Assembly: GCA_036172245.1 (NCBI GenBank)
Contig: JAYWIR010000026.1
Coordinates: forward strand, 868,001-932,000
Source of the DNA: Raillietiella orientalis
Lineage: Eukaryota
Length of the DNA: 64,000 bases
Reading direction: 5' to 3'
Each line of letters starts with the position of its first letter. Position 1 is the first letter of the stretch. Positions 11,055 to 42,200 of the stretch are shown here, in pieces. The notes beneath the pieces are model-generated. The model was not told the DNA's origin, searched no databases, and saw only the letters and a list, made by a program, of their open reading frames with translations. Made by a program: the position numbers and the translations under genes.

Positions 11055-11146
11055 TAGTTTAAAACTATACCCAATACCCCGCCAAGGCAGTGTTTAAAAC
11101 CACTGCCAAGGCAATTTTCGAGTGCCCTGAGAGGGCAAGTGTTTGA

Positions 11147-13019
11147 GTGAACGCCAGTGTGGAAAGAGTGCAACCCGGGACCATCATCATCATCAGCAGC
11201 AGCGCCGAGAATTCCACGGTGGAAGTCCTGCAGTCGTCCCGAGCAGCCGGAACAGCTGCCAGGATGCAGGCATCTGGAGTTGGAGGAGTGGTGAGGCCAT
11301 CGTCCCCCATGGAAGCCATGGAGGTAACGTGCGGCAACGGCGAGGTTGCGAGAGGCATGCCGAGGATCGCACCCGCGGCGGGCTTTGCTGCGCCGGCGGC
11401 GGCGATGCCAAGGGTCGTGCCCGCGGCGACGACGGCGGAGGTCGTGCTCGCGGCGGGGAAGGTCGCTCCTGCGGCGGCGATGCCGAGGGTGCCGCCCGCG
11501 GCGGTGACGTCGAGGTTTGCGCCCGCGGCGGCGGCGTCCCAGGCGGGACCCGCGGGCGTTCACGCGGTGCAGGGAGCGACGCCATCTGGTTCGGCTGCGG
11601 CGTCGCAGCCCTTTTCTTATGCGTCGGTGGCGGCTGGACAGGCGAGTGTCCACCCACCTAGGAAATTTGGTAAGCCGCTTAGCGGAAAAGTTCTAAAAGT
11701 GGACCGACCAATAGTCGAAATAGGCCCCAACGTGAAGCCCATTATCTTCAAGACCGGGCTAATAAAATTTAATAAAATCAGGGAGGTCTATTTGTCCCTC
11801 GACAAGACGGACATAGACTTTGATCGCATTCAGGCGATCATTCCATCAAACAACGGGTTCACAGTCTTTACAGACTGTGAAAACATTAGAGAGCGATTGA
11901 TCCAGAAGGGGATCAATATACAAGGACGGATGGTTTGTGGTATTGGTGAGATGCCATACACAACCGTCTTTTTAAACGGCATCTCCATCCTCACACCGCA
12001 ACTAGCGGTGTGGAATTACTTGGAGCAGTTTGGGGAAGTTCTGGACCTCGATTTCCAGAACTTCTCTGGAAACATATTTTCTGGCGACATGATCGCCAAG
12101 ATGAAGTTGAGGGAGGGAGCGGTGATCCCTGGATTGGCCGTTATTGACGAACAATCCCAGGGAGTGAATGTGCGTTACCGGCAACAACCGGTATTCTGCA
12201 CCGGGTGCAAGCACTTCGGCCACAGGGCCGGCGCTTGCCCAACTTGCCGCTGCTTTCGCTGCGGCAAAGTAGGATATCAAGTTCGAAACTGCCCGCAGCC
12301 GGAGGTGTGCTCCTTCTGCAAGAAACACGGACATGCGAAATGGAGCTGTCCGGAGTTTGAAAACTGCAGAAGGATTCGAGGTCTCTCTCCCGTGAGAGAG
12401 AGAAACATCAAGGAGGCCGAACAGCCTTAGAAGGCAGGAAGGCCGAAGAAGGTGAAAGAAGCCGTCCCGGTGTCGGCGGACGGCTTCATAGAAGTGGGAA
12501 AGAAGAAAAAGAGCAGGATGCTCGTCAAGGAGCAAGGAACTCCTCAAATCCTGGAAGCAGCAGAGCAGGAAGGCGAGAAGATGGAGGCAGCGCAGGAAGG
12601 CGCGAAGGAAGAGAGACAGGAAGCCACTAAAGTGTCGCAGGAGGCTCTGCAGACCACAGAGGAGTTGGCAACACTGGCGGAGGAGATCATGGAGGTGCAG
12701 AGCGGTCCTCAGCAAGAGAAAATCTTGCAGAAGATCTGCACTGCACAAGAGAACATCAACCAGGTTGTGGAGGTCGCTGAACGCGAGAAGTTAGAGGAAC
12801 AGCTTCTCGACGTGAAGGCGAACTTCTGCGCCAAGGTCGAGATAGAGGCGCTATCTCGAAAATTGATCGCGCAAGCGGAACACTCTACGGAGGAGGCAAA
12901 AAATTACTGACCTCACAGGTACGGAGAGTGACGCCGGCAGCGAGAAGCCCGCTGCTTCTTCATTGTCTGGAAGAGCACGCTCTCTCAGACAGAAGAAGCT
13001 CAGGAAGGCCAAAAAATAG
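11147..13019 (+). pseudogene. ORF1 (gag-like zinc-knuckle protein) of segment E, disrupted
   Basis: Knuckles CTGCKHFGHRAGAC, CFRCGKVGYQVRNC and CSFCKKHGHAKWSC; Ala/Pro-rich N-terminal repeats; internal stop at 12428-12430 and probable frameshift near 12900. Start codon uncertain. Confidence 0.8.
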
Positions 13020-13032
13020 GTCTTCCCCTTTA

Positions 13033-16000
13033 ATGGCCTCTTCCCTATCGACCGCCAGGAGGATGAACATCGCCTCCTGGAACGTAAACGGTGTGGTCGA
13101 CCAGGGAAAAAGAAGAAGGATTGTGCGGACCATCGCACAACAAGACATCGTGTGCCTGCAGGGGACCCACAGGATGGGTCTGGAGATAAGCCAGCGAATG
13201 GAACGACGATTCAACGGGCAGATGTTCGTCAACGAAGGAGAACGGAACACGAAGGGTGTGGCGGTGCTAATAAAGAACCACTTAGCCCCCACTATTCTGG
13301 AAGTGTTCTGTCCCCAACCCGGACGAATCATCGGCGTGCGACTGGCCTGGTCCGCGACTGTTCACCTTATCCTGGTTCACTTTATCGCATCCAGGGGTTT
13401 CGTGACACTATGACTACGGTGTCCGATCACCCCCTGGTGCGGTTTTCCCTAAGAACGGAGAATCCTCGGCGGAGGCAAGGCACCAGGGCGGCGCTCATCA
13501 GCATGCCCGCCTGGTTCGAAACCCATCCCGGACATCAGGCTGTCCTGGAGGCGATTCTGAGGGCAACAACAATCCGAAGAGTCGCCGACTGGGACAGCCT
13601 GAAACACAGGATACACCTGTTTGCGAACATGCAGTTCGGGGATAGGCGCTTGAAGCAAGAGGCGTACCGGGAGCTGAACATCCAAGATCGCTCCCTCTCA
13701 AAGTACTTCGATCAGTACGAGAGTCGGTACGTCCTCAATAACATAAAAGGGGAAGTCGGCGTGCTGGAGAAGAGAAATCTGGCAACAGATATCTTCTGCA
13801 TCCGGTACGACGGCCAAAAGCGACAGTCGTCTGAGGACATCGTGGATGCCTTTCACAGGCATTACACGAAACACTTCAGGCGACAACAGCTGTGTCGCTC
13901 TAGTCAACAGGCCTTCTTGAGCTATCTCGAGAAGAGGACCGACGACCTCCAGCGGAACAGACTGGAGGAGGAGTTCTCCGAAGAAGAGGTGAAGACTGCG
14001 TTTGGGCAACTTCGCAAGGACGTGGCAGCGGGCGCTGACAGTGTACCCATCACGCACTATCAGCGGTACCTGCACGCCTACCTGCGCTTGTTCCACCAGT
14101 TGACCGTCTGCATCCGGGAAGAAGGCAGACTACCTCAGTCCTTCTACGAGAGTCGGATGAGATTGCTGCCGAAAGGAGGCGACTCTACCCAGATCGCCCA
14201 ATGGAGGCCAATCTCGATTCTAAACTCCGATGCCAAGTGGTTGGCGAATATCTGGTCCAACCGCTTAGGCAAGGTCATGTCGAGGCTGATCTCTCCGGTC
14301 CAGACATGTGCAGTCCCAGGACGACACATGTCGGACAATGTCAAGTGTGCCCAGGCCACTGTTGGACTCAGTCGATACGTCGGCGAGAACCTGGTGCTGG
14401 TGTTCACTGACATGGAGAAGGCCTTCGACTCCATCGACCACGGGATGCTGCTGAAGGTTCTGGAGAAGCTAGGGCTTCCGGAACACTTCAGCAACTTCGT
14501 GAGGGCAATACTCCAGAACCAGTACTGCCGGATCAAGATCAACGGCCAGGAGACGGCAGCAACCAGGATGGAACGAGGAGTCCGACAGGGCGACTCGCTA
14601 AGTCCGATGCTGTTCGTCATCTATATGGAGGCGTTGTCGTCCTTTATAGAGAAGAGCGGACGACTAAGCGGGATTACCATCGATAGCCAGCGTCTTACCC
14701 ATCTGGCATACGCCGATGATCTACTCTTCTTCATCAAGGGAGAGAAAAATCAGCGTGCGTTTCTGGATGTGGTGGACCTGATGGAACAGGGCTTGGGCTT
14801 AAAAATCAATTCCCAGAAGAGCCAGCTTTTGCCCGTCGGAATACTGGATCTCTCCACTCTAAAGGGTAGTGGATTCCGTACGGTGGACACGGCCAAGTAC
14901 CTGGGAGTCTACATCGGCGACGGCTCTGCGTCGAAGCTGCTGTGGAAGGAAATCCTGGGGAAAACGGCCAAGGAAGCAGCCAAGTACACCCGAACGGACC
15001 TTGGGATGAAGCGAAAGGCCAACATATGGAACGCAGTACTCCTTCCGAAAGTGCTCTTCGGGGCGGCCTTCGCGAGGATGAACAAGGACACTACTAGGGA
15101 GTTCGACAAGCTGCAAAGAAAAACACTCTGGGGCCACTATCGCCCAAGAGTAAGACTGAAACCCCTGTGTCGTCCCAGGGTAGAAGGCGGTTCCGGGATG
15201 AAGTCGCTTGCACATTCCATGGAAATCATGGATACGCGACACATCCTGGACATTGCCACTCACTGGGATGACTGGCCGTATGCGGCGCACAGGGCCTACG
15301 CGTTGTTGCTTAACAACTCGAAAGGCCTGATGACTGCGCTGCTAGGCAAAGTAGGGGAATGGATAACAATCGACCCGACCTGGAGGAGGAAGCAACGGCT
15401 GGTGCGGAAGCACCAAATCAAGATCGTGCCGCGAAGCAGGGAATTCTGGCAGGACGAGTCCATCCTGGTGATCCCTTGGTTGCTTCCTGTCCCGCCGGAC
15501 ACGAGAAGCTGGATCTACCAGCGGTCCAGAGTTACCCTACTGCAAATCCAGGAGTGGAGGCGAGGAGGCTACCTACATCAAACACGTATACTTCGGCATA
15601 CAGAGATGATGTTAGGAAGGTTTACCCACAGGACCCGCGAAGTGTGGTTCAACCACAACGACTTCGCATGGTCGAGGGTAACCAGAACAAACCTCCGAAG
15701 GCTTATCCAAGAAAACGACCGTGACACCAGTGCCCTCCAGGAAGCCACCGAACGCTACGGGAGTGAACGGTTCAACCTGTTAGCGATCGGCACGACGCTC
15801 TGGAGGAGTGACCTTCCGCCGGGCACCCAGGATGACCTCCTGATGTTTTATCACGGAGGAATCCAGAGTGGGTCCCGATTGCAGCACTTCACATGAAGAC
15901 GGGAAGATCGAGACTGCACAGCATGTGGAGACATTGACACGAGACTGCACGTCTTGACGTGTCCCACATTGCTGCATGACTGGCTGATCCTGAAAAGTAT

Positions 16001-16307: not shown

Positions 16308-16451
16308 GTGCAGAACTTGTGAGAACCCAAGGACTTCATAGTGGTAAAAAAAAAGTGCTAATGGTATAAATGAGATTGTAGTGTGAATGTTTTTATAGAA
16401 AAATTTTAGAAAAATAAATTTACCCCACCCCTCGTGGGACTTGCGGAAAAC

Positions 16452-27100: not shown

Positions 27101-28364
27101 ACGAGCTCTCGAACGGCAAAGGTCCGGAGATGCTGGCGGAGGTGCTCCGCAGCCACCGGATTTCTCAACCAGTCGGCCGGCAACCTCCAGACGTGCGTCG
27201 GAGGGCCCTTGCCAGGCGGGAGTCGCTCAAACTCCAGCCTGTAGTGGTCGGAAAGCTCGGACGGCACGGGACCTCTTCGACCCACCCGACAATGCAGGTG
27301 ATCGTCGAGGAACACATGGTCCGGCAAAGCACGCATTCCGGGATCGTCGGCCAGCAAATTCGAGGCGTGCACCGACGCGCACACCTCGTTCACCAGCCGT
27401 TTCTCCCGGCGACGGTGAGACTCCTCCGATAGCGCGTGGACGTTGAAGTCCCCGGCTACGAGGTGAGCCACGTCGGGGCCGGAGTTGCTGAGCCAGCGGT
27501 CGCGCAGTCTCTCGAAAAACTCCAGTTTCTCGGTGTGACGCGCGGAGCCGCTCGGCGCGTACACGTTCGTGACGACAAGGTTGATCGATTCGGACCACTT
27601 GAGAACAAGTTGGCCCACACGACCTTCCTCGTCGAAACAAACGCTCCGCACCCCTCCCGCCACCCTGCCCCGGACAAGGAATGCGACTCCGCAGGTATTC
27701 TGGGAGCCTGACCTCCAATGGAGCGTCCCGCCTGCGCGAACTTGCAGATCGGCCGCTTGCTGCTCGGAGAGTGCGTGAATCTCCTGCAGCAGGGCCAGAT
27801 CGAAGTCGCGCAAGACGTTGGCAACCAATCGCCTCTTCTCGTTGTCCTGCAGCCCGTTGACGTTCCAACAGGCCACTCGGACGCGACGGGAAGAAGCGAG
27901 ACCGCGCATTGCTGCTACGGACATGGAGGTGCGTTCCTCGCCCCGTCCGGCGAGGCATCAGCCGGGAGCACGGCGGATGAGGTAGCGCAAGCGCTTCCTG
28001 TCCCCACCGCGCCGCTCACGGCCGGCTCGGTGGAGTCGAGGACCATTGCCTCGGGCTCCGAGGAGCATCGGCAACCGTTCCCGGCATCAGGCTCTTGCCT
28101 GGCAAGTTTTGGCTTGCGCGCAGCCCTGGCCTTGACCGGGGCTTGGCGAGCCTTAGCGCTGCCCTCGGACTCCACCTCGGAGTCCGAATTGCGCGCGCGC
28201 GGCGGCGGGCGTTTCGCCTGCCTCTTTGTTTGCTGGCAGCCCGGAGCTGGTCCAGCACTCTTAGAGGGTGCCTTCGTCACTGATCCCCCTTTCGGGGTCA
28301 CGGCTTCGGCAGCTCCCCTCTCGCCGCGGGTGTTTGCGGCGGCGCGCGCGGCGGCAGCAGAGGC
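24120..28364 (-). mobile_element. Segment J: 5'-truncated family-1 element (ORF1 tail, complete ORF2, 3' UTR) flanked by TTGAT TSD
   Basis: 902-aa ORF 25216-27924 (EN+RT) plus frameshifted C-terminus with CKRC-x8-H-x4-C. TTGAT at 24115-24119 and 28365-28369. 3' motif AATAAA (24143-24148, minus) + hairpin. Confidence 0.94.
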
Positions 28365-31300
28365 TTGATGTGGCAATGCGGCACCCGATACACCTGCGGC
28401 GTCGGGTTTTTTATGAAGCCGGCAGTCGACGCAGCAGTGAAGGGCGTGCGCTTCGACGAAGCCGGTCGTGTCGGCCAGCTGATTCTCAGGTGGTCCGACA
28501 CGATCGACCTCGTCGTAACAAATGTGTACGCTCCGAGCGGTCCTACCAGGTACCAGCAACGTAAAGCGTTCCTGGAAACCCTGAAGCGCGACTGGCTGGC
28601 GGAAGCGAACGTGTGCGTGGCTCACCTGATAGCGGGAGACTTTAATCTCCGCCTGCTATCAGGTGAGCCACACGTACAGGAGCGGACGGCTAACGAGTTG
28701 TGCGCCGCCATGCGCACGCGCAACTTGTTAGGGGATCTTTCGGAAATGGTCAGCAGCATCGACCACGTCTTCCTGGATGTCGACCTGTGTTCACGGGTCG
28801 GCAAACGGGGGAAAGTTGCGTCGGTGCTGTCTGACTATTTCCGGTTGATATTCGAGGTGTGCCCGCTCGACAAGGGCCCCCCATCCAGGGCGTGGCGTCT
28901 GCCTGGGGACTGCACGCGACACTCAGGTGCGAAGGAACACCTTCGCGAATTCCTGAGAGGCGTCACCCTCCGCAATCTCAATGATTGGGACCTTTTTAAG
29001 GCCTCGGTCCGCGAGTTTTACGAGGAGTTCCCCTTGCACCTCCTGCCCCGGGGATTTGGGGTGGGCATCCGCAACGAACGAGCGTACTTGTATGCCCGTC
29101 GTTACGCGAGGACCCCCAATGTCCGTCGCCTGGCAGAGTACCTAGCCGGGGCCGAACGTCAAGCCTGGCAATCCGGATCGGCCAGCTTGCTGGACGACCA
29201 GGGCCGGGAGCACTCGGCTCCGGCTAGAATACGGCACCTCGTGCGGCGTTTTTATTCCTCCCTTTACGCCAGGGCGCCCCCGGACCAAGATGCCTCTCGG
29301 CGCTTGCTTCCGAACGGTGCCCCGGCAATAGGGGAGGAAGAGAAGGAAAGCCTCGACGAGCCTTTTACCACCGGCGAAATTCTCGCCGGTATCAAAAGGC
29401 TCAAGAGGCGGAAAGCACCAGGGGAGGACGGCCTGCCTGTGGAGTTTTTTCAATGCTTCGCGGCAGAGTTGGCACCCCTGGTGCTTGAGTTGACAAGGCT
29501 GATCCGAGATGAAGGCGATGTACCCGCCTCGTTTCGGTCAGCCAGAGTGAGGCTCCTTCCGAAACGAGGAGACCTCAGGAAACTCAGCAACTGGCGTCCG
29601 ATCACAATTGTGAACACGGACGCCAAGCTGATCGCCGGACTGTGGGCTTCGCGTCTGGGGCAGGTGGCTCATTCCATAATTAGCCCGGAGCAGACTTACG
29701 CTGTTCCCGGGCGAAGTATGGAGGCCAACCTCTTCTTCGCGAGCACATGGTTTCATGTGCAGAGTAGTAAAGAAAAGGAAGAGAGAAGGATTGGCAGCCC
29801 CGCTTTGGGGGCGTCAGCCGGGCAGGGACAGGACTCCCAGGTGGGGAAGGGAGCCCTGGCGATCGCAGTCGATCTGCATAAAGCGTTTGACTGCGTGGAC
29901 CAGGATCTCCTGCTGGAGCTCCTGGGACGCATGGGCTTCCCTCCCTCCCTACTGACCTACCTGCGCTCTTGCTGGCGCAGCGCGCTGATCAATATCTCTT
30001 TCAGAGGTCAAATGGCGTACGGCGTACCGGTACGGCGAGGCATACGGCAGGGCGACAGCCTCAGTCCCCTGCTCTTTAGCACCTACTTTGAGTTGGTGCT
30101 GAGAGCGTACAGGGTGACTTTGGCTTCCTTGCCAAGCTCGTGCCCCGGCACGCCCGCCGTAGCAGCGTACGCCGACGATCTTTTGCTTCTGTTGCCAATG
30201 TCCACCCCGGCGAAGGCGGTCGGGGATTTCTTCGATCTGCTTAGCCGCGGGACCGGACTTACGGTGAACAGGGCGAAGTCGACGGTGGTTCCAGTCGGTG
30301 CGGCGTGGGCTGGGCAGCAGGACTGGGTCCGCTTGGGGATCCCCACGGCGAGGTGCTTGAAGTACCTTGGTGTGCCGTTGGGGGACTACTCCCCTGCGGA
30401 AGCGTGGTCTGGCTGCCTCCAAAAAGTGGAAACGGCGATCGGCCCGTTCTTGGAAGACAAAGTTCTCCTTCCGGAACGGGCCGCGGTATGGAACGCGTTC
30501 GCGGCTCCTATCCTCCGCCCCCTGCTTTTTGTTTGCCCCGTCCCCAGAGAGTTGAAAAAACGGACAAAGGACCTCCTGAGAATTGCCCTTTGGGGAAGAG
30601 GGAGGCCCCGAGTCCCGTTGAAGGACTTGTGTGCTCCACGTCGGGATGGCGGTCTCGGCCTCTTGACGATGGAGCGAGTAGAGATTCAGCTGCGGTGGCG
30701 AACCCTCGCCATCGCAGCGAAGTTATGGAGCACTTCTTGGTGCGTTCCGGCCCGACTCCTTGCCAGCCGTGTATCCGGATCGGAGGGTCTCGCGTCCTAT
30801 CTTCTGTGCCGTGGCAGGAAGATCAAGAGATGCGGACTTCTCCTGGGACGCATGGCAACTCTGGCTAAGGAAAACGGCTGGATGGTATGCAGCCCCGCCA
30901 ACTCCTCCGCATGGCTGGAGGAGACAGCTGGCACGTGGGCGAAGATTAATGAAAAAAATGAAGAGATGTGGAACTGCCTGCGACGCGGCGCCTATTCCCG
31001 CTGCACTCTGCGGAAGATACTCCAGTGTCCCGCGAGAAGCACGTGGGCAGAGACAACCCCCCTAGCTACGGCGTTGCCCTTCCTGAGGAGGGCGCTCTCC
31101 AGCAGCCGCAAGCCTAGGTGGCAAGTCTCCTGCCGCATCGCAGGCAAGGAGAAGTTGATCAGCGGCTGGTCCACGGGTGAACTGGCGGACGCCAGTACCC
31201 CTAGTGTCCAGCCGAGAGGACTGCAGAGATGGGGCGAGCTACTCGGCATCCAGCCGGATGACCTGAAGTGGCCCCCGGTATTAATTGGATCTAGGATCCT

Positions 31301-31766
31301 CCCCCTGAAGTGGCAGGAGTCGGCGCTTCTGTTGTTGCATTGGGGTCTACCCTGCAACGCACGCCGCCACCACTGGACCAGGGGTCGAGTAGATCCTACC
31401 TGCATCAGGTGTGGGGAACGGGAAACCCTCCCTCACCTCCTTGTTGATTGTGCTGCCCTCCGACCCCTGTGGGAACGTCTTCGTGCCTCCCTACGGATCC
31501 AGGACGGCAGCCAGCCCAGAGACGTTTTTCGGCTTCTGTTCGTGCATGATTCCCTGTGTCCAGCCGCTGCCCTGGCTGCACTTTGCTGCGTACGCGGGAT
31601 TGTGACGTGCTGGAGCAACGTCGGAAGACCGAATCACGACAGGGATGCCGTCGTACTTGCAGTCCGCTACCTGCGGATTGTGACCAGATGGCCCCACCTG
31701 GGAATTATACGGACGGACCTCGAGGGCATCCTGCGAAGGATGGACCCTCCTCCCAGTGGTCAGTGA
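28365..31766 (+). CDS. Uninterrupted 1133-codon ORF2 portion: APE endonuclease, reverse transcriptase, CCHC
   Basis: NVYAP, GDFN, IDHVF, KAPGEDG, WRPIT, KAFD, QGDSLSP, YADD, CIRC-x8-H-x4-C. Its N-terminus is separated by insertion J, so it is not an independent gene. Confidence 0.9.
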   Translation: MMWQCGTRYTCGVGFFMKPAVDAAVKGVRFDEAGRVGQLILRWSDTIDLVVTNVYAPSGPTRYQQRKAFLETLKRDWLAEANVCVAHLIAGDFNLRLLSGEPHVQERTANELCAAMRTRNLLGDLSEMVSSIDHVFLDVDLCSRVGKRGKVASVLSDYFRLIFEVCPLDKGPPSRAWRLPGDCTRHSGAKEHLREFLRGVTLRNLNDWDLFKASVREFYEEFPLHLLPRGFGVGIRNERAYLYARRYARTPNVRRLAEYLAGAERQAWQSGSASLLDDQGREHSAPARIRHLVRRFYSSLYARAPPDQDASRRLLPNGAPAIGEEEKESLDEPFTTGEILAGIKRLKRRKAPGEDGLPVEFFQCFAAELAPLVLELTRLIRDEGDVPASFRSARVRLLPKRGDLRKLSNWRPITIVNTDAKLIAGLWASRLGQVAHSIISPEQTYAVPGRSMEANLFFASTWFHVQSSKEKEERRIGSPALGASAGQGQDSQVGKGALAIAVDLHKAFDCVDQDLLLELLGRMGFPPSLLTYLRSCWRSALINISFRGQMAYGVPVRRGIRQGDSLSPLLFSTYFELVLRAYRVTLASLPSSCPGTPAVAAYADDLLLLLPMSTPAKAVGDFFDLLSRGTGLTVNRAKSTVVPVGAAWAGQQDWVRLGIPTARCLKYLGVPLGDYSPAEAWSGCLQKVETAIGPFLEDKVLLPERAAVWNAFAAPILRPLLFVCPVPRELKKRTKDLLRIALWGRGRPRVPLKDLCAPRRDGGLGLLTMERVEIQLRWRTLAIAAKLWSTSWCVPARLLASRVSGSEGLASYLLCRGRKIKRCGLLLGRMATLAKENGWMVCSPANSSAWLEETAGTWAKINEKNEEMWNCLRRGAYSRCTLRKILQCPARSTWAETTPLATALPFLRRALSSSRKPRWQVSCRIAGKEKLISGWSTGELADASTPSVQPRGLQRWGELLGIQPDDLKWPPVLIGSRILPLKWQESALLLLHWGLPCNARRHHWTRGRVDPTCIRCGERETLPHLLVDCAALRPLWERLRASLRIQDGSQPRDVFRLLFVHDSLCPAAALAALCCVRGIVTCWSNVGRPNHDRDAVVLAVRYLRIVTRWPHLGIIRTDLEGILRRMDPPPSGQ

Positions 31767-31972: not shown

Positions 31973-32762
31973 CTATCAACTTGGCATCCGCATTCACTAT
32001 TGTGATAGGACGCCAGTTGCTCATGCTCCGAAGGTCTCCTCCCTTAGGGAGGAGACGCACCTTTGCCGAACGAAACGAGGCGTGGACGTCGCCCGTTTTG
32101 CGGATCAGCAAGGTGAGTTTCTTCACCAGAGGAGTGAGCTCTGCCGCGAAACATTGAAAAAATTCCGCTGGCAGGCCATCCTCCCCTGGAGCCTTCCGCC
32201 TCTTGAGCTTTCCGATGGCCGAGATGATCTCGCCCATCGTGAAAGGTTCGGCGATTGTCTTTCTATGTTCCTCCCCGATTGCCGGAGCGCCTTCCGGAAG
32301 AAGAAGTCGCGAGACATCCCGTTCCTGTGGAACGCGCGCGTACAGGGAGGAGTAGAATTTTTTTAATACGCCTTTTACCTAGGCGGGGGCCGAGTGCTCC
32401 GAACCCTGGTCGTCCAGTAAGCTGGCCGACCCGGATTGCCACGCCTGCCTCTCGGCTCCTGCACGGTATTCGGCTAGCCTGCGTACGTCTGGTGTTCGCG
32501 CGTAACATCGAGATTGTAAATACCATCTCTCGCTACGCACGCTTTCACCAAACCCGGCAGGCAGGAGGTTCATAGGGAACTCGTCGCAAACATCCCGGAC
32601 CGAGCGCTTGAAACGGTCCGAGTACTGAAGCGTCTGTAAGCTGAAACCTCGTATGAATCCGCGGAGATGCTCCGCAGCTTCCGGAAGTTTCAGCCATTCC
32701 CCCGGTAAGCGCCACGCAGATGACGGCGGACCCCTATCGCGTGGGCGCACCTCGAGTACGAT
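31973..32762 (-). mobile_element. Segment L: upstream part of element L+H (end of endonuclease to WRPIT)
   Basis: IVLEVRPRDRGPP...QAWQSG...KAPGEDG...WRPITIVNADAKLI, joining segment H across the 13-bp TSD. Confidence 0.9.
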
Positions 32763-32850
32763 TTTCCCCAAGTCCCACAAGGGGTGGGGTAAATTTATTT
32801 TCTATAAAAATAACATTCACACTACAATTTTATATTCACACTCTCATTCA
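32763..32850 (-). mobile_element. Segment m: ~90-bp 3'-terminal fragment of family 2
   Basis: The reverse complement ATTGTAGTGTGAATGTT...AAATAAATTTACCCCACCCCTTGTGGGACTTGGGGAAAA matches the 3' end of segment E (16375-16450). Confidence 0.88.
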
Positions 32851-34047
32851 CGCTGAAGGACTCGCGTCTTCTCTTCTGTGCTCCGGCCGGTAAATAAGAA
32901 GATGCGGACTTCTCCTGGGATGCATGGCCACCCTGGCAAAGGAGAACGCGTGGATGACCTGCATCCCCGCCAACTCCAGCGCATGGCTGGAAGAAACAGT
33001 TGGAACGTGGGCAAAGATAAACAATATCAGTGAAGAATCCTGCAACGGCCTGCGTACCGGCATCTACACCCGCTGCACGCTGCGGAACATGATCGTGTGT
33101 CCCGCCAGAAGCACATGGGCGGAGACGACCCCACTGGCCACGGCGCTACCCTTCCTACGGAGGGCGCTCCGCAATATTCGGAAGCCGAGATGGCAAGTCT
33201 CCTGCCGGATAGCGGGCAAAGAGAAGGATCTGACTGGGTGGACCATGAGGGAACTTGCTGACGCCGCGACCCCAAGAATTCACCCACATGGACTACGGAG
33301 ATGGGGCGTGCTGCTTGGCATCCCGACGGATGACCTAGAGTGGCCCCCGTCGTTCATTGATTCATCAATCCTCCCCCTAAAGTGGCAGGAAACGGCGCTG
33401 CTGTTGTTGCACTGGGGTCTTCCCTGCAACGCGCGCCGCCAACACTGGACGTGGGGGAATGTTGAACAGAACTGCGGTGTGCGGGGAGAAGGAATCCCTC
33501 CCCCATCTGTTAGTGGACTGCGGTGCCCTCCGGCCCTTGTGGGAACGTTTTGCTACGAACCTTTCAATGCCGGTAGGCAGCACCCCCAGAGACGTTATGA
33601 GATTCCTCTTCGAGCGACACGCCCTGACACCAGCCTCAGCCCTGGCAGCACTTTGCTGCCTCCGAGGGATTGCGGCCGCGTGGAGCGCAGCCAACAGAGG
33701 AAGCAGCGACAGGGATCCCATCGTACACAATGGTCGATACCTGCGAATCGCGATCGGCTGGTCCCATCTGGGAACAATGAAGAGGGACCTCGAGGGCATC
33801 CTCGAAAGGATGGTCTCTTCCTCCAGCGGGCTGTGATCCCTTCCCGGCCCTCCAAATAGTTTTTTTTCGTTTATTTCTTTTATTTTTCTTTTCGTTTTTA
33901 CCCCCTACCCCCTCCGCTGCCGAGGAGAGTCAAGCCGGCCTGCGAGCCGGCTTCCCGGAAGGTCCAAAGAACTATTGGCCGTAGCGGGGCCTCGTACCAC
34001 GAAAACAAAGTGTTTAGGAATAAACGCCCCGGCGTGACCGGGTGAAA
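32851..34047 (+). mobile_element. Segment N: 3' fragment of family 1 (A/K-like subfamily)
   Basis: MATLAKENAW...LPLKWQE...HWGLPCNARR. 3' motif AATAAA(34019)-CCCGG/CCGGG-TGAAA. Confidence 0.9.
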
Positions 34048-34394
34048 ACTCCCCGATGTCCAGTGAGATGATCGTGCTCTTCTTAAAAGTCCCCAATGGA
34101 GCAGAAGCAACGCCGTCTCCTGCCATTTCAGGGGAAGGGTGCCGTTATCCCAACCCGCTGGGGGCCACTTCACCTTCTTCGGAGGTACGTCGAGCAGCGC
34201 GCCCCAGCGTATAAGTCCATTCGGCGGGACAGTGGGAGTACTAACGTCCGCTAGTTCCCGAGACGTCCACGCCTTCAACAGTTTTTTTCTGTTTCCGATG
34301 AGGCAGGACACTTTCCACGATGTCTCTTGCTGGTTGTCCCGAACTTCCCTGATGGACTGGGGCAAGGGGGATGAAAGAAGCCTACAGAAGTTTC
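34048..34394 (-). mobile_element. Segment O: internal ORF2 C-terminal fragment of family 1
   Basis: WKVSCLIG...WTSRELAD...LPLKWQETALLLLHWG, cut at HWTSGS by the 3' end of segment N. Confidence 0.85.
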
Positions 34395-35429
34395 GTCGAT
34401 GACCGTACGCTCGACAGCCGCTGCAGGAGATTATCAACACGCCCCGGAAGTTTCTGTGTGCTTCTTTCACCCCCCTTGCCCCCGTTCTGTCCTCCCTGAA
34501 GAACATTAGGAGCAGCAACAAGGGAGCATCGTGGGAAGTGTCCTGCCTCATCCGACGCAGGAGAAAACCTTTAAAGGCGTGGACGACTTGGGAGCTAGCG
34601 GACGCTGCCACCCCGAGCGTCCCTCCTCACGGACTTGTGCGCTGGGGAAAGCTGCTCGCAATACCTCCGGAGGAGGTGAAGTGGGCCCCCGCATGTTGGG
34701 ATTGCGGCACCCTTCCGTTAAAGTGGCAGGAGACGGCGTTGCTATTTCTGTACTGGGGACTGTTAAGCATAGCACGCCTGTTTCACTGGGCACTGGGGAA
34801 CGTGGATGCCCGATGCGTCGAATGCGGTGAAAGGGAAACCTTCCCACATCTTACCCTCGAGTGTGTCGCCCTGGTTGGACTCTGGAGTCTAATCGCCCCA
34901 ATCCTCCATCTTCCAGTAGGCGACCCTAAGGTCACTTACCGTCGCCTCTTTCTGCGTGACGACCTGCGCTCCGCTGCGTCTCTAGCAGTCCTCTGCTGCG
35001 TGCTCGGCATCGTGCAAAGGTGGAACGCAAGAGGTCAAAGATGCAGGGACGCCATCCACTGGACGACGATCTCCTTGGAGACGGCCACAAGGTGGCGTCT
35101 ACCAGCAACGATAAAAACGGAACTTGTCTGCATCCTGGAGAGGACGCGGAGGACCTATCTAGGCGCTCAGTGATCCCCTCCCTGCCCTCCACTCCCCCAT
35201 ATAACTATTCCCCCTCCCCGTTATTTCGCTTTTTGTTTCTTTGTTTTTTATTTTCCCCTTCCCCCGCGCCTGGGGAGAGAACCTCGCAGGTCTAAGGACC
35301 GGGTAGAGAGAATATTGCAGCGTGGGAGAACCGAGTGTTCCCCCACATAAAAAAGTTTTTTAAAGACTTTATTATCTAATTTTTGTAACAAATTAGAATA
35401 ATAAATGCCCCGGCATATCCGGGTGACAA
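34395..35429 (+). mobile_element. Segment P: 3' fragment of family 1
   Basis: ORF 34538-35173 with CVEC-x8-H-x4-C. 3' motif AATAAA(35400)-CCCGG/CCGGG-TGACAA. Confidence 0.88.
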
Positions 35430-38400
35430 ACATCCCAGTGAAGAACCCTGCCGAGATCGTGCCCCGGCACGCCTGCTGTGTCAGCCTTTGAAGACGATCT
35501 GCTGCTGCTTCCTGGGTCCATCCCGGCTTGTGCGCTCGAGGACTTCGAGTTGCTCCGCCGCGGGACGGCCTGGAAGTGAACAGGGCGAAGTCATCCATCG
35601 TATATGTCAGCACAGCTTGGGCTGGACGGTCGGACTGGATCCGCCTGGGGAGCACACGGGCAGGTGCTTCAAGTACCTTGTCGTTCCGTTGGGGGACTTC
35701 TGCGTGACAGAAGCCTGGTCCCACCGTCTCCAAAAGACATCGTTGGCGATCGACGCGTTCCAACACAAGTTTTACTTGCAGGAACGGCCGCGGTGTGAAA
35801 CGCGTTTGTGGTCCCCCTTCTTCGCCCCCTACTTTTTGTGCCCCGCCCCTCACTGTGAGAAAAAGAGCAGCGAGCCTCCTAAGGACAGTCCTTTGGGCCA
35901 AAGAGAGGTCCCGTGTGCGACTTAAAGACTTGTGCGCTCCACGTAGGGAAGGTGGACTTGGTCTGCTGACGTTGGAGCGCATGGAGCGTCAGCTGCAGAT
36001 TAGGAAACTTGCCCTTGTGTCGAAATATTGGACAGCACTATGGTGTGCGCCCACACGACTCCTCGCCCACAGAGCAACCAGCTGCAACGGATTGAAGGTC
36101 GGGGAAAACTTCGTCCATCCCCAATGGAGGCACTTCTGTTATTGGGAGAACCTGTAAGGATACACCGCATACAAAGGAGCAGCCCAGCTCGAGGATGTGA
36201 CTACTTGGCTGGTCCGGAACAGAGAGCTAGGAGGCGAGCTAGGAGAGGTGAACTATGGGGCTCTATTGTACGAAGAGGTAGGGAAATACTTGTCCGAGGA
36301 GTGGCGTGCGCCAAGAGAGATTCCCATCGCCAAAGAATGAGTCAGATCGGGGATCTGCACCATGGGGAAGGCTGGAACGGGCAGGAAGACCACCGTTTTG
36401 GTGGACGGGAAGGAGGTAAGAACATCAGCTATGAAGGGAGTTGACGCCGCCGTGTTCTCAGACGAGGAAATCCTACTCATGCTGTACAGGCCTGTGAATG
36501 AAACGATGGTAGTGATCGAAAAAAGTGAACCACGTAAAGTTCGCCCAGTTGTTAAGACCGGCAACGCGGTGAATCGTAAAATGGACTTCTTAGCAGTTGT
36601 TGACAGGGGCTTGTACGGAACGAAGACGACCACGCTCTGCGGCGGCACGGCGGGAAATGAGGATATCGACAAGGTCTTACTTGAGGACGTGGAGTGCCCG
36701 AGGACCTGTAAAGGACCCCTTGACCAGAAAAACTTTGACCAACACCAGTCGAAGTATAGCATAGCTTGTGTGCTTGCTGAGGTAAGGGGCGAAGTCATAG
36801 CGCGTTTTAAGGACTCGCGACCAAATGTGCTTAAGATCTGGGAGGCTCTTTGGGAAAGCGTGTTAGTCAACCAGGTCGAGGTTGTCCTAGGCAACAAGCG
36901 CATGCGGTGGGGGAACGGCATCCCTAGCGGTTGGCGGTGGACCGCCTTGCTTGATACTTTGCTTAACATAGCCAGCTTCCGAGTCGGTGAAGTGTGTCAA
37001 GCTGGGATTAAGCGAGGACTTTCCGGTCTTAAACCATGTCAGCCGAGGTGATGACGTCGTGTTTTCTACTAAGCATTTATAACACGCTAGTTGTCTGGTG
37101 ACTGAATTGAACCGGTTGGGCTACGAAGTACATCCCCATAAGACCTTCGTCTCGCGTCATAGGAGCGAGTTCCTTAGGCGGAGTTATGAGCCAGGAGTCG
37201 TTACGGGCTACAATGCACGAAGCCTCACGTCTATCCTGTACCGGAACCCTATAATCCCTAGTCCTGTCTGCAGAGCCGAGAGGGTATACGGTAGGCTCCG
37301 AATGTGGCATCTGGCGGTATTGAGGGGCAATTCAGCTTCAGCCTGTGCGGAGCTCTTCCTCGAAGACGCCTGCCAGTTAGGGGTCTCCGCCTCCGACGCT
37401 GTGGGGTATGCACTGACCCCAATCCTTGTGGCCAATGACGGTAGACTGAACCATTGTGGGTTTCAGCTACGGGACTTGGTGGCCGTGGTGAGGAACAACC
37501 CGTGGATTTCCTGCAGCCCCGCAAACTGGACTATCTGGCTCCAGGAGTCCGTTTCCGCGTGGGCAAAAATCAACGGCTCCAGCGACGTGGATTTCTCCTG
37601 CCTCCGTCGAGGCAGGAACGCTGGCCAGCCCCTGCGGGAAATCGTTTGCAACCCACGGAAACTTCTATGAGCTTCCTTCACCCCCCTTGCCCCCGTGCTG
37701 CCCTCCCTCAGGGAAGTTAGGGATAGCCAACAGGAGGCATCGTGGGAAGTGTCCTGCCTCATCAGAGGCAGGAAAAAACTGTTTAAGGCGTGGACGTCCC
37801 GGGAACTAGCGGGCGCTACAACCCCGAGTGTCCCAGCAAATGGAATGGTGCGCTGGGGCGAGCTGCTCGACATGCCTTCGGAGAAGTGGCCCCCGGTGTA
37901 TTGGGACAGTGACCCCCTCCCTTTGGATTGGCAGGAGACGGCGCTGCTTGTGCTCCATTGGGGACTTTTAAGCAGAGCACGCCTGTCTCACTGGACATTG
38001 GGGAGATTGGATGCCCATTTTGCAGAGTCCGGGGAAAGGGAGACCTTCCCCACTTAATAATCGAGTGTTGCCCTCTGCAGCATGTGGGATCGACTCTCGT
38101 CAGCCATAAACGCACCGGTGGGCGACCCTAAAAATATTTTCGGCGCCTCTTGATGAGGAACTCCCTGCCAGGTGCCGCGTGGGTTGCAGTTCTCTGCTGC
38201 ATACGGGGAACATTGGACAAGTGGAACGCGTCAATAAGAGGCCGCAGTGGTCGGAATGCCATCCACTGGGCGGTCATCTCAATGAAGAAGGTTTCCCGTT
38301 GGCGCCGGCTGAGTAAAATTCTGCCAGCACTTGTTCGCATCCGGAACCAGATGCAGAGGCCTCCCCTCGGCGATCAGTGATCCTTTCTCTTCCCTCCCCT

Positions 38401-38638
38401 CCCCATAAACAGTCCCTCGAGTGTTTTTCTTTTTTGTGTTTTTGTTTTTTTCTCTTTTTCCCGTCCCCTTCGCCAGTGGAGAGGACCTTACCGGCATACA
38501 AGTTGGACGGGACAAGTGCATAAGACAATAAGAACAATGTGTTCTGACTGGAACACAAGTACAGACGACAGGAGTTCATTATAAAATATATAATTGTAGA
38601 ATTTTTAATAATAAAAGCCCCGGTTTACCCGGGTGAAA
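35430..38638 (+). mobile_element. Segment Q: decayed family-1 element (RT FEDD region to 3' end) carrying a viral insert
   Basis: SCPGTPAVSAFEDDLLLL, LKDLCAPRREGGLG, LPLDWQE, with many frameshifts. 3' motif AATAAA(38610)-CCCGG/CCGGG-TGAAA, then AT-rich host DNA. Confidence 0.88.
36096..37416 (+). pseudogene. Endogenous viral element: toti-like (Ghabrivirales, Giardiavirus-like) RNA-dependent RNA polymerase fragment
   Basis: Ordered RdRp motifs EPRKVRPVV (F), PLDQKNFDQHQ (A), GIPSGWRWTALLDTLLN (B), RGDDVV (C, ~37044, after a +1 frameshift), EFLRR (E). Several in-frame stops. Unrelated to the surrounding LINE ORF2. Confidence 0.9.
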
Positions 38639-38996
38639 ATCATCTCAGAACATTAAGATTTGTGGATATGCCAGTTTAAGAAAAAGAACTCCCAACAGCA
38701 ATATACAATGCAGCTAGATGCAAAATGGAAGATAAAACTTAAGATCGCGAAACGCCAAAGACACACATTGCTAGGAAATATGAATTTCGAAAGTTTCTGG
38801 AATCAGAGATAGCGGATTACAGGTAGAACACAAATCCATAGTATAATTGCATTAAATACGCAACTTTGAATCATCGAAGATGGAAACTCCTTCCTTGAGC
38901 CACCTGCTCTTCGTCTTCACAAATGTACCACATCAAACATTCTTTCGACCGCACTTGAATGAATTATTTTGTGTAACATCGTAGAAATGCATTCGA

Positions 38997-39253: not shown

Positions 39254-42200
39254 TCATACTCTTGTACGCACTTCTTGTTTCCTGGGCTCGAAAGAAACAC
39301 TTTTAGGGCTAGGTACATAACTGTATATGAAAACAGAGCCTATGACTAAAGAAGTCCCAATGATAAATTGGAATGTAATCTTGAAATGAAATAAATAAAC
39401 TGAACCCACACAAGAAAGCACAATCGCCAGTGAAGTGGCAAACCCCTTCAATATGTTATCTGCATACTTGACCACAGCAGCGACTAGCAAACCACCACAA
39501 GCCTGGAGTACCACAAGATACCAAACGAATATGTCATATCCAAAAAAGAATCCCTTTTCTTTGATAGACTCGGCATCAGTACCAAAACATGTCAAAATAC
39601 CAAAGGGGATAGAAAGAAAACTCAATTGAATATTTCTTATCCAGACTGAAATGTCTGAACCTTTAAGAATTTTTTCGAAATAAATTCCTGCAAATCCAGA
39701 AAGAACGCAGGCACCCAGAGCTGCACTGATACCAATCACCTTGGACTGTCCTATTTGGTTGATGGACGAATGTTGCTCTCCGCCTTGAGAGAGCTGCACT
39801 AAAACAACTCCTAAAAATACACACACTGTATTATGACATCCTATGAATTATCCAACTTTTTTCATAGAAAAGTGTCTTTTTGTTAGTAAAAAATACTTTT
39901 CTTTGGTCAGTGTTCTTACCTATTATTAGCTGAACTAGAGAAAACCATTGCAACGACTTCAAAGAACGCTTTAGGATAACAACTGCAAACACCGCAGTAG
40001 TCAAAATTTTTAGTTGATATGTAACCTAGTTAAGCAGGGAGAGGGGGGAAAAAAAGGCTTAATTCAGAGCATCACATTATAGGGAAACAAAGTTGCGGCA
40101 ATACTGATCAATTTTAAACGCCGAGACTCAAAACAAGCAATCTTTGAACAAGAAATCATAAACGTTCGCTCAAATCTGCAAACACGAAAACAAAAAAATA
40201 CACAAACCACTCTACACTAGACGAAGTGAAACAAAAATGTAAGTAGCTATTTTAATAATTTTCATTTTTGCGAGGGAAATTGAATACCCTCCCCCCCTTC
40301 GCAGAAAACTGCATGCAAAAACACGTTCATATAATATAATTACCATTTCAAATATTCAAAACACACGATGTGCTTCGGAAGAGTTTCCAATGAAGTTTCA
40401 TCGTTTATTAATCAGAGTGGCTGAAAGGTTTTGAATTAATATCCTGTGGATCTTGCATACAACTTCAAGGAAAATGACGAAGAAATTTATAAACTACAAA
40501 TCAAATCGCCGACAGCAGTCACAATTCCGGTCAAAAATATCGACAACATAAAATTTCTGTATCAGTTTACAACACGTTCTTCCAGAACTTCCCCAACGAC
40601 TCTCAAGCAAAAACTTTTCGTAATCCAAGAACAAATTCGTAAGGCATGCAATCCGGTGAAATGGGTGGCCATTTCGTACGTTGCTCATGAAAGGATAAAA
40701 ACGGAGCTTTTTGCTTTGAAGCAGGAATCGAAGTTGAAACAGCGATATGGGATACCCCGTCCGGGGCAATAAGTTAAGCAAACGGCGCTGATCAGTGCAC
40801 TTTATGAATTGTATAAAACCAACAGCAGCGTTTCTTCGCTGCCAGGCTTTTGGGTAACTTTGAAAACCGAAGCGAGCATCAAGATCAGAGATTACGACAC
40901 ATAAAATTCCGAAGCACAAAATTTATGAATCGGCGATTTCCTTTTTCTTCGAAATTCCGTACAACTTTGGTCAGCAGAAAGTTATCAGAAGTTTTACGCT
41001 TTCGTTAATCGGAAACGCTGTATACCTGAGAATGTTTAAAACAATTAAAGATGTGCTTGATACAATCTAGTGTTTTCACTTTCACTTCAGTCTTCCACAA
41101 AACACATCCTTTGAAAATATAGAAACCATTTGCAAACTGCCGGATGCAATACTGTGTGCACTTTCTATGTACTGCACTGTATACTGTGTATACTTACTAG
41201 GCCCAAGAAACAACCAATTTGTTCATAATCATATGTTTCTTTTGATGACTGAACTTCCTTTAAGTTTAATTAGTTTTTCTTTATTGAAAAATAGGCACAG
41301 CACATGTAAACAGAGAACAACTATAAAGGCGAAAATACTTGAGTTACTCTGGAAAAATTTTTTTAGCTCTATTACTAAACAGTTCCACCTCCTAGATTGA
41401 AGGCTGTTTGTTGCTGGGACAAAAAACCATAGTCAAATTATGTTGTTCTCTCATTGAAACCATTCCCTGTTTCCTGTCACTCAGAAAAAAATGTTTCCAC
41501 TATGACAAAGAAAACAAACAGTGACTGTTGCCCCAAATTTAAAGTAAATGCACAGTGGTTGAATTCTGAGCAGAAGCACTAATATCTGGACTTTAATTGA
41601 ATTATGACCTAAATTAGACAAATCCGTATCACACCCTTGTACTTGTTTTTTGAAGGAAAAATAAATAAAACTTCAGGTCTACAATTCTCTGATTGAAAGA
41701 CAATGGGGTTTGCAATGTTCTGAAGAATCGCAGTTTAATTTTAAAAACAAACAGTTTTTATACACACCAGTGGTAATGCAAATACAGAGCTAATACAAAG
41801 TTCTCAAACTTTTTAACAAATGTTTTCCAACTATAAATGCTGGAGTGCTCTTAGCATCAAAATCTGTAATGACAAATGCTGAATTTGTTCATGATAGCAA
41901 GCAGCTCCAAATCCAATACAATTAAAATTATAAAATTAATCATACAGTATTGTTAAAAAGAATACTATTCTTGACCCCATCATCCATGCTCCTCCTACTA
42001 TGTACACGATAACATTGATTTGCATACAATTATTTTTACCATGAAAGTAGCACTCAGATCATTTGCTTAAGATATTTGTGACTGGAAAGACGTGACGAAA
42101 GCTTTTTGGATTTGCTATTCATAACTTTTGTCGATGAGCATTATCATTTCTTCATTAATGTGTACTCATACATATAAGTGATTGCAACTAAGTATTGAAA

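Follow-up and report, generated by a model that had tools for sequence, protein, structure and literature searches.

In this study, a fragment of a toti-like virus RNA-dependent RNA polymerase (RdRp) gene was found inside open reading frame 2 (ORF2) of a long interspersed nuclear element (LINE) in the genome of Raillietiella orientalis. The window, meaning the whole 64-kb stretch of DNA that was analysed (assembly GCA_036172245.1, contig JAYWIR010000026.1, positions 868,001 to 932,000, forward strand), carries this fragment in sense orientation at 36096..37416, and positions below are those of the window. The fragment is a genuine decayed non-retroviral endogenous viral element (EVE) of the arthropod toti-like type, and the host-genome sequence is contiguous on both sides of it, with LINE ORF2 to the left and to the right. 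As to its origin, our leading reading, held at somewhat less than an even chance, is that viral (+)RNA underwent reverse transcription and, through microhomology, became joined into a LINE copy that already stood in the chromosome.

An earlier sequence-only reading of the window had described the fragment as a toti-like RdRp in sense orientation. This description is borne out by the translation, which matches viral RdRps with E values down to 1e-103, and by the C-terminal piece (36990-37442, with X at stops), which passes the cut-off of RdRP_4 (39.7 vs 22 bits, profile positions 385-459 of 465). The N-terminal piece (36092-36985) taken alone stayed below every Pfam cut-off (RdRP_1 17.1 vs 23.9); it aligns with full-length toti-like RdRps at E 1e-87 to 1e-103. 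A search with the 236-amino-acid (aa) ORF at 36341-37051 returned 54 proteins at E<=0.001 (2104 candidates), most of which carry PF02123; the best are 49-56% identical, a range that comes from the 90% library and from longer lengths only. The named relatives are Solenopsis midden virus, Shuangao toti-like virus, Corcyphos virus 2, Kamu toti-like virus 1, and Sanya totivirus 1; three lepidopteran species also contributed genome-encoded proteins to the matches. When five relatives were used as tblastn queries, all five matched one single locus of the window. For example, relative P0018 aligned through aa 75-377 to 36092-36985 (frame +2) and through aa 380-530 to 36990-37442 (frame +3), with E 1e-103. 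Arthropod toti-like viruses are 44-51% identical to the viral piece, which corresponds to about aa 75-525 of relatives that are ~755-800 aa long; both viral ends are therefore internal to the RdRp gene. The regions that we take to be RdRp motifs A, B, and C (GDD) are present in order, and each is aligned to the same residues of the relatives.

A quick maximum-likelihood (ML) tree of 53 rows, built without an outgroup from other Ghabrivirales families, placed the viral piece inside a 34-row clade together with all five named toti-like viruses (Shimodaira-Hasegawa-like approximate likelihood ratio test, SH-aLRT, 99). The placement among toti-like viruses thus stands, while the position inside the clade is left open by the tree: the piece has no close sister there, and its best identity is 51% over 429 columns. 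An exhaustive profile search gave 305 relatives at E<=0.001, and no virus above ~56% identity over at least 160 aa was present among the best 150 of these 305; the library consisted of representatives clustered at 50%, behind which closer members may sit. IMG/VR contained one related locus (49% identity) that reaches the right-junction site only, and a 35-mer across the left junction had no match in metagenome contigs. Two proteins had been dropped from the original 55 rows of the tree. P0001, a lepidopteran genome protein of 1180 aa, contains two tandem RdRp copies; in P0054, RdRP_4 is accompanied by RVT_1 and RT-RNaseH domains, suggestive of a chimera of the long terminal repeat (LTR) type. 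As the make-up of these two proteins shows, toti-like RdRp has been joined to other sequence repeatedly in host genomes.

The junctions of the viral piece can be read to within a few nucleotides. The DNA at the site is GGA TTG A|AG GTC ... GCA CTG A|CC CCA ATC. A TGA on each side had been described previously, and both triplets are read directly, though the exact position of each border is uncertain, over 4 nt on the left side (TTGA) and over as many as ~6-15 nt on the right side; the true borders may lie anywhere in 36092-36096 and 37413-37431, respectively. Neither junction shows poly(A), a LINE 3' hairpin or tail, or filler. In tblastn, the intact sister ORF2 at 28284-31766 aligned through aa 658-836 to 35567-36094 and through aa 835-1082 to 37410-38141. 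Since it is aligned as far as aa 836 and then again from aa 835, no LINE sequence was lost. This agrees with the sequence-only reading, which had quoted a sister peptide that is located at 20571-20512 on the minus strand. Six sister copies run uninterrupted across the site, reading ..G-L-[T/A/L]-S-[F/Y/L]-L.., and a seventh has its 5' end (32852) 13 nt upstream of the equivalent position; the insert is thus absent from the site in 7/7 sister copies within the window.

The viral side of the junctions was approached through the relatives. At the left end, the relatives have L13/V10/M8/A4 (44 rows) followed by K in 42 of the 44; the right-end pattern is [FY]xLT and then P, the latter in 44 of 47 rows with a residue, and one related viral contig reads ATG ACT CCT at this site. 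Because of these residues and this contig, a donor with NTG-A at both ends is plausible. The two ends of the donor virus were probably NTG-AAG and NTG-ACN, both with TGA, in which case virus and LINE would have shared 3-4 nt on the left and 4-7 nt on the right. The TGA predicted for the donor falls in the same codon phase as the LINE TTG-ACC, and all three TGAs are in one codon phase. At the right junction, the interrupted copy has P where 7/7 sister LINE copies have S; this P may be viral sequence or a plain substitution.

The LINE frame coincides with the viral frame at each junction (+2 on the left, +3 on the right). The agreement in phase at both junctions is therefore real, as had been claimed, but it is weaker evidence than was assumed. 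TGA triplets of the viral piece and of the intact LINE ORF2 were sorted by codon phase and counted; from these counts, if the junctions are tied to TGA, the chance of a phase match at both is ~0.21, not 1/9. The match is less remarkable because a TGA inside an ORF is barred from codon phase 1. Selection is not required to account for the match in phase and sense.

The interrupted LINE copy spans 35438-38643 and is as decayed as its insert (Table 1). It is 5'-truncated at 35438, where it adjoins the 3' tail of the LINE copy before it, and AT-rich host DNA follows its 3' untranslated region (UTR). Its left part contains at least three frame changes, and its right part contains one near 38050 together with stops at 37668 and about 38128. 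The viral piece has three in-frame stops and one frame change in ~440 codons. Disabling lesions number ~6 in 1613 nt of the LINE part and 4 in 1321 nt of the viral part, which are indistinguishable. This similar lesion density indicates an old insertion and is compatible with any order of events. Base composition gave no clear contrast either, with GC 0.53 and a CpG observed/expected ratio of 0.90 in the insert and GC 0.58-0.59 and ratios of 0.70-0.85 in the LINE flanks. Neither function, expression, nor co-option of the viral piece is indicated.

Table 1. Positions of the viral piece, its junctions and lesions, the interrupted LINE copy, and the LINE2 domains in the window.
Feature	Position	Strand	Basis or remark
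Toti-like virus RdRp fragment (EVE)	36096..37416	+ (sense)	ORF search, tblastn, tree, Pfam, profile search
RdRp motif A region LDQKNFDQHQS	36719..36751	+	alignment to relatives
RdRp motif B region SGWRWTALLDTLLN	36926..36967	+	alignment to relatives
RdRp motif C, GDD	37047..37055	+	alignment to relatives, Pfam
Left TGA, overlapping LINE codons TTG A(CC), no in-frame stop; common to the start of the viral piece	36093..36095	+	
Right TGA (CTG A|CC), common to viral ...ALTP and LINE ...GLT	37414..37416	+	
In-frame stop, viral piece	36155..36157	+	
In-frame stop, viral piece	36338..36340	+	
In-frame stop, viral piece	37080..37082	+	
Viral frame change, +2 to +3	36986..37016	+	the two high-scoring segment pairs (HSPs) of every tblastn query switch frame here
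Hairpin and tail at the 3' end of the preceding LINE copy, abutting the 5' end of the interrupted copy	35409..35437	+	
Left part of the interrupted LINE, ORF2 aa ~612-836	35438..36095	+	tblastn with the intact sister ORF2, 3' end mapping
Right part of LINE ORF2, aa 836-1159	37417..38371	+	tblastn
LINE 3' UTR	38372..38643	+	AATAAA, hairpin GCCCCGG..CCGGGT (38619-38636), tail GAAAATC, without poly(A)
LINE2 domains	ORF1 with CCHC knuckles 11147-12430; APE (apurinic endonuclease-like) 12781-13413; RT (reverse transcriptase) 13020-15896	+	full-length copy

The viral piece lies near the edge of a LINE nest. Bases 1 to ~38643 of the window are GC-rich (0.53-0.65) and are followed by AT-rich host DNA (0.30-0.45); the GC-rich block is a 38.6-kb nest of LINE fragments on both strands. 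The intact ORF2 at 28284-31766 (+) is 1160 aa long and contains Exo_endo_phos and RVT_1. As a tblastn query, it yielded 21 HSPs, which together account for 26277 of 37322 nest bases (70%). APE and RT domains are found in the sister ORF2s, and weak zf-RVT matches, below the cut-off, occur in three copies. The nearest proteins to this ORF2 in a 5.8-billion-protein collection are only 24-31% identical (29% for the top-ranking one) and have L1/Tx1-type Pfam sets. By its domains the family appears to be an L1/Tx1-like LINE of the APE type, and the intact ORF2 may belong to an active, unsampled lineage. Its sister copies are ~65-79% identical in DNA. Eight 3' ends of this first family were mapped (3277, 3865(-), 8572, 24139(-), 31952, 34028, 35409, and 38619); all eight have AATAAA, the GCCCCGG..CCGGGT hairpin, and a short GAAAATC-like tail, and none has poly(A). 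These shared ends suggest that initiation depends on a 3' structure. From 31974 to 38643, the copies are arranged head to tail, each 5'-truncated and abutting the preceding tail.

The entry of the viral piece into this nest can be considered in terms of a simple insertion. Toti-like viruses have no DNA stage, and a reverse transcriptase was therefore needed; on this the sequence-only reading relied on established knowledge. In the insertion account, an internal ~1.32-kb stretch of (+)-strand RdRp RNA would have been copied to DNA by the reverse transcriptase of a host retroelement. The LINE copy would have been integrated beforehand, with a break or staggered nick at ...GGATTGA|CCCC.... On the bottom strand, the 3' end exposed by the break could then have annealed to TGA(C) within ...CTGAC... 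of the viral RNA and served as primer for reverse transcription, a process that would be microhomology-primed, target-primed reverse transcription of the endonuclease-independent type; the capture of a ready-made viral cDNA by microhomology-mediated end joining would be an equivalent route. The far end of the cDNA would have been joined by means of the second TGA, with viral NTG-AAG paired to LINE TTG-A. The outcome would be a seamless insert between 3-bp TGA repeats with zero LINE loss, and the decay of the element by three stops and one frame change would have come later. We infer the event order (LINE first), the acting enzyme, and the donor TGA at both ends. Endonuclease-independent L1 insertion is known, as is template jumping by R2 and L1. 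The seamless junctions, without poly(A) or filler, argue for microhomology-guided priming or joining and against a classical L1 retrocopy, and the 3-bp duplication or microhomology fits a staggered break. Landing in LINE ORF2 needs no special explanation because 70% of the nest is ORF2-homologous. Both flanks are kept automatically because the insertion is into DNA, and a single event suffices.

Several observations weigh against the insertion account. The microhomology is deduced from related proteins that are only 44-51% identical. Sense orientation is a 1-in-2 outcome of such an insertion, yet it is required by template switching; sense and phase jointly have a chance of ~0.1. The truncation of a second LINE copy 13 nt upstream of the equivalent site has a chance of ~6%, given ~8 truncated starts, and this coincidence hints that the LINE RNA is repeatedly discontinuous there, a feature left unexplained by insertion in situ. 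Moreover, with the LINE and viral parts decayed alike, nothing points to a later viral arrival.

These points bear on a possible but rather unlikely alternative, namely out-and-back template jumping during the retrotransposition event that made this LINE copy. The LINE reverse transcriptase would start at its own 3' hairpin, copy back to 37417, leave the LINE RNA (most plausibly at a template break), copy 1.32 kb of viral (+) RNA, return to the LINE RNA at the adjacent nucleotide, and stop at aa ~612, with TGA microhomology aiding both jumps. Sense orientation would be obligatory on this route, and it is seen; both viral ends are internal and lack poly(A) or a tail, and the LINE and viral parts have a similar lesion density. 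The 3' hairpin conserved in 8/8 ends suggests that the enzyme initiates on its own RNA alone, and therefore foreign RNA could enter by jumping alone. The copy truncated 13 nt from the same site and the U4 small nuclear RNA (snRNA) fused to the 5' end of a LINE2 element in the nest, an architecture of snRNA-LINE template switching like that of U6-L1 chimeras, also speak for it. However, a return to the exact departure nucleotide is not expected of template switching, and a homology of 3-4 nt is too short to specify a unique return site in more than 3.5 kb of LINE RNA. In known LINE chimeras, the foreign RNA is at the 5' end and copying does not resume on the LINE. The exact return is easiest to imagine with a LINE RNA cut at the site and two end-to-end jumps of the reverse transcriptase. 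RNA structure was considered as a pause site and dropped, since no consistent fold was found across four copies (z +1.9 for this copy vs -2.4, -1.4, and -0.3 for three sisters). The truncation coincidence, furthermore, was spotted post hoc and in a complex junction beside a LINE2 tail. The sequence-only reading had put forward this template switching as one possible maker of the structure; the structure does not single it out, as the same anatomy results from simple insertion into an integrated LINE copy.

The match in sense and phase, combined with the absence of LINE loss, is also what selection for an open ORF2 would produce, and the window copy could then be a truncated, decayed daughter of a master element with the RdRp piece in its ORF2 linker. 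The site, between RVT_1 (aa 426-698) and the zf-RVT region, is strongly variable among sister copies, motifs A-C of the polymerase are within the captured piece, and viral superfamily 1 (SF1) helicase domains in LINE ORFs provide a precedent (PMC5563155). Against such a propagated chimera, the insert is present in 0/7 sister copies of the window (~65-79% identical in DNA) and no second RdRp locus occurs there, the phase match has a chance of ~0.21 even without selection, and decay has gone equally far in the viral and LINE parts. In addition, among proteins of 107-342 aa, the only lengths searched, no chimeric protein matched the right-junction ORF (37083-37670). This origin is considered improbable, and so, to the same degree, is its fullest version, in which a LINE lineage gained an in-frame RdRp core through two reverse transcriptase jumps at a broken RNA, retrotransposed as an RT-RdRp fusion, and left a decayed daughter here. 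Classical trans-mobilisation, in which the LINE machinery would have carried a viral transcript to the nest by endonuclease targeting, is quite doubtful. The nest has evidently been targeted repeatedly by the LINE family, and a short duplication (TGA) is present on both sides. This duplication is only 3 bp long, though; the viral 3' end lacks poly(A) and a LINE 3' tail and is internal (~aa 525 of 755-800), and GGATTGA|CCCC is unlike the sequences beside the eight LINE 3' ends. The suggestion of trans-mobilisation by LINE targeting made earlier is disfavoured by these features and by the missing LINE hairpin. An assembly artefact or contamination that joined viral and LINE reads is very unlikely: a double-stranded RNA virus is not expected in DNA reads, the stops and the frame change are of the pseudogene type, and a chimeric join would not reproduce the resumption of the LINE at the exact codon beyond the insert.

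Other features of the nest and its surroundings were also recorded. A second, distant LINE family (LINE2) extends from 11136 to ~16450. Directly 5' of this full-length LINE2, on the same strand, is a full-length U4 snRNA (10998-11135, +; model positions 1-138, 90 bits vs a gathering score of 46). The U4-LINE2 unit is either an snRNA-LINE template-switch chimera or the product of a U4-targeted LINE; no target-site duplication of at least 7 nt was found around it. A very short LINE2 3' tail at 32762-32850 (-), 90-95% identical to 16375-16450, has a minus-strand LINE1 fragment on one side and, on the other, the plus-strand LINE1 copy that starts at 32852. A 273-nt inverted repeat (34050-34322 and 34527-34799, 78% complementary) is built from a single LINE ORF2 segment that occurs once on each strand. 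Twin priming was considered for the inverted arms at 34046-34394 and rejected, as both arms are the same LINE segment and only 78% alike. No other captured foreign coding sequence was found: 150 of the 151 ORFs of at least 110 aa gave only RVT_1, Exo_endo_phos, zf-RVT, zf-CCHC, and RdRP_4. The AT-rich host DNA, 1.2-2.4 kb to the right of the viral piece, includes a nucleotide-sugar transporter host exon (Nuc_sug_transp-type, 39254-39847, -). This exon is ~600 bp from the nest edge, and the nest is therefore just downstream of that gene.

Chimeric retrocopies offer a first comparison. U6-L1 and other chimeras were reportedly attributed by Buzdin et al. in 2002/2003 to template switching by the LINE reverse transcriptase. 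As at the present locus, the foreign RNA in chimeras of the U6-L1 type is in LINE orientation without poly(A) in between; unlike here, it is at the 5' end and the LINE is not resumed, whereas the LINE of R. orientalis runs on for ~660 nt beyond the insert. L1-mediated integrations of bornavirus and filovirus mRNA in mammals, said to have been described by Horie in 2010 and Belyi in 2010, likewise brought an RNA virus into germline DNA by a LINE-type reverse transcriptase. Their reported features, namely poly(A), target-site duplications of 7-20 bp, and mRNA 3' ends, are all absent from this locus.

Toti-like EVEs occur widely in arthropods (PMC10636211). The locus resembles them as a genomic, partly decayed fragment of a toti-like gene that groups among arthropod toti-like viruses; it differs in that its junctions are readable at the nucleotide level, both within one LINE ORF2, in sense and in phase. 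Insect LINEs with a viral SF1 helicase (SF1H) domain are reported (PMC5563155), in ORF2 of TRAS/R1 and ORF1 of Jockey. These also have coding sequence of an RNA virus in frame in a LINE ORF, but the SF1H domains of TRAS and Jockey remain intact and conserved and occur in many copies across many species, whereas the RdRp piece is broken, limited to one locus of the window, and found in 0/7 sisters. It is also internal to ORF2, in contrast to the C-terminal addition described there for the SF1H LINEs. In Aedes, viral integrations show an association with LTR elements and have flanks depleted of non-LTR elements (PMC5497376); around those of Ixodes, non-LTR elements are enriched two-fold (PMC6580184). 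Chimeras of viruses and transposable elements had been said to involve mostly LTR elements. This holds for Aedes; Ixodes shows the non-LTR enrichment just mentioned, and the helicase domains are in LINE ORFs. The studies on Aedes and Ixodes likewise place EVEs in retrotransposon-rich regions and propose template switching by reverse transcriptase as the source of viral cDNA. Their evidence is the enrichment of transposon classes in flanks; here, there is one nested LINE structure at nucleotide level with no adjoining LTR. A search of open-access literature with selected terms returned no description of an RdRp fragment within the ORF2 of a LINE.

In sum, the entry of RNA viruses that have no DNA stage into invertebrate genomes has mostly been inferred from nearby transposons, and few junctions are legible at single-nucleotide resolution. 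The R. orientalis locus is an example at junction level: an internal piece of an RdRp gene, without poly(A), filler, or target loss, flanked by a 3-bp repeat, the probable trace of homology that virus and target shared. In other respects it is an ordinary fossil, as toti-like elements are widespread in arthropod genomes and the piece is broken. Its clean junctions hint at the route by which the piece was pasted in. If a one-off out-and-back jump at a recurrent break near aa 835 proved true, this locus would be the first case, at nucleotide level, of a LINE reverse transcriptase inserting viral RNA and then resuming on its own template.

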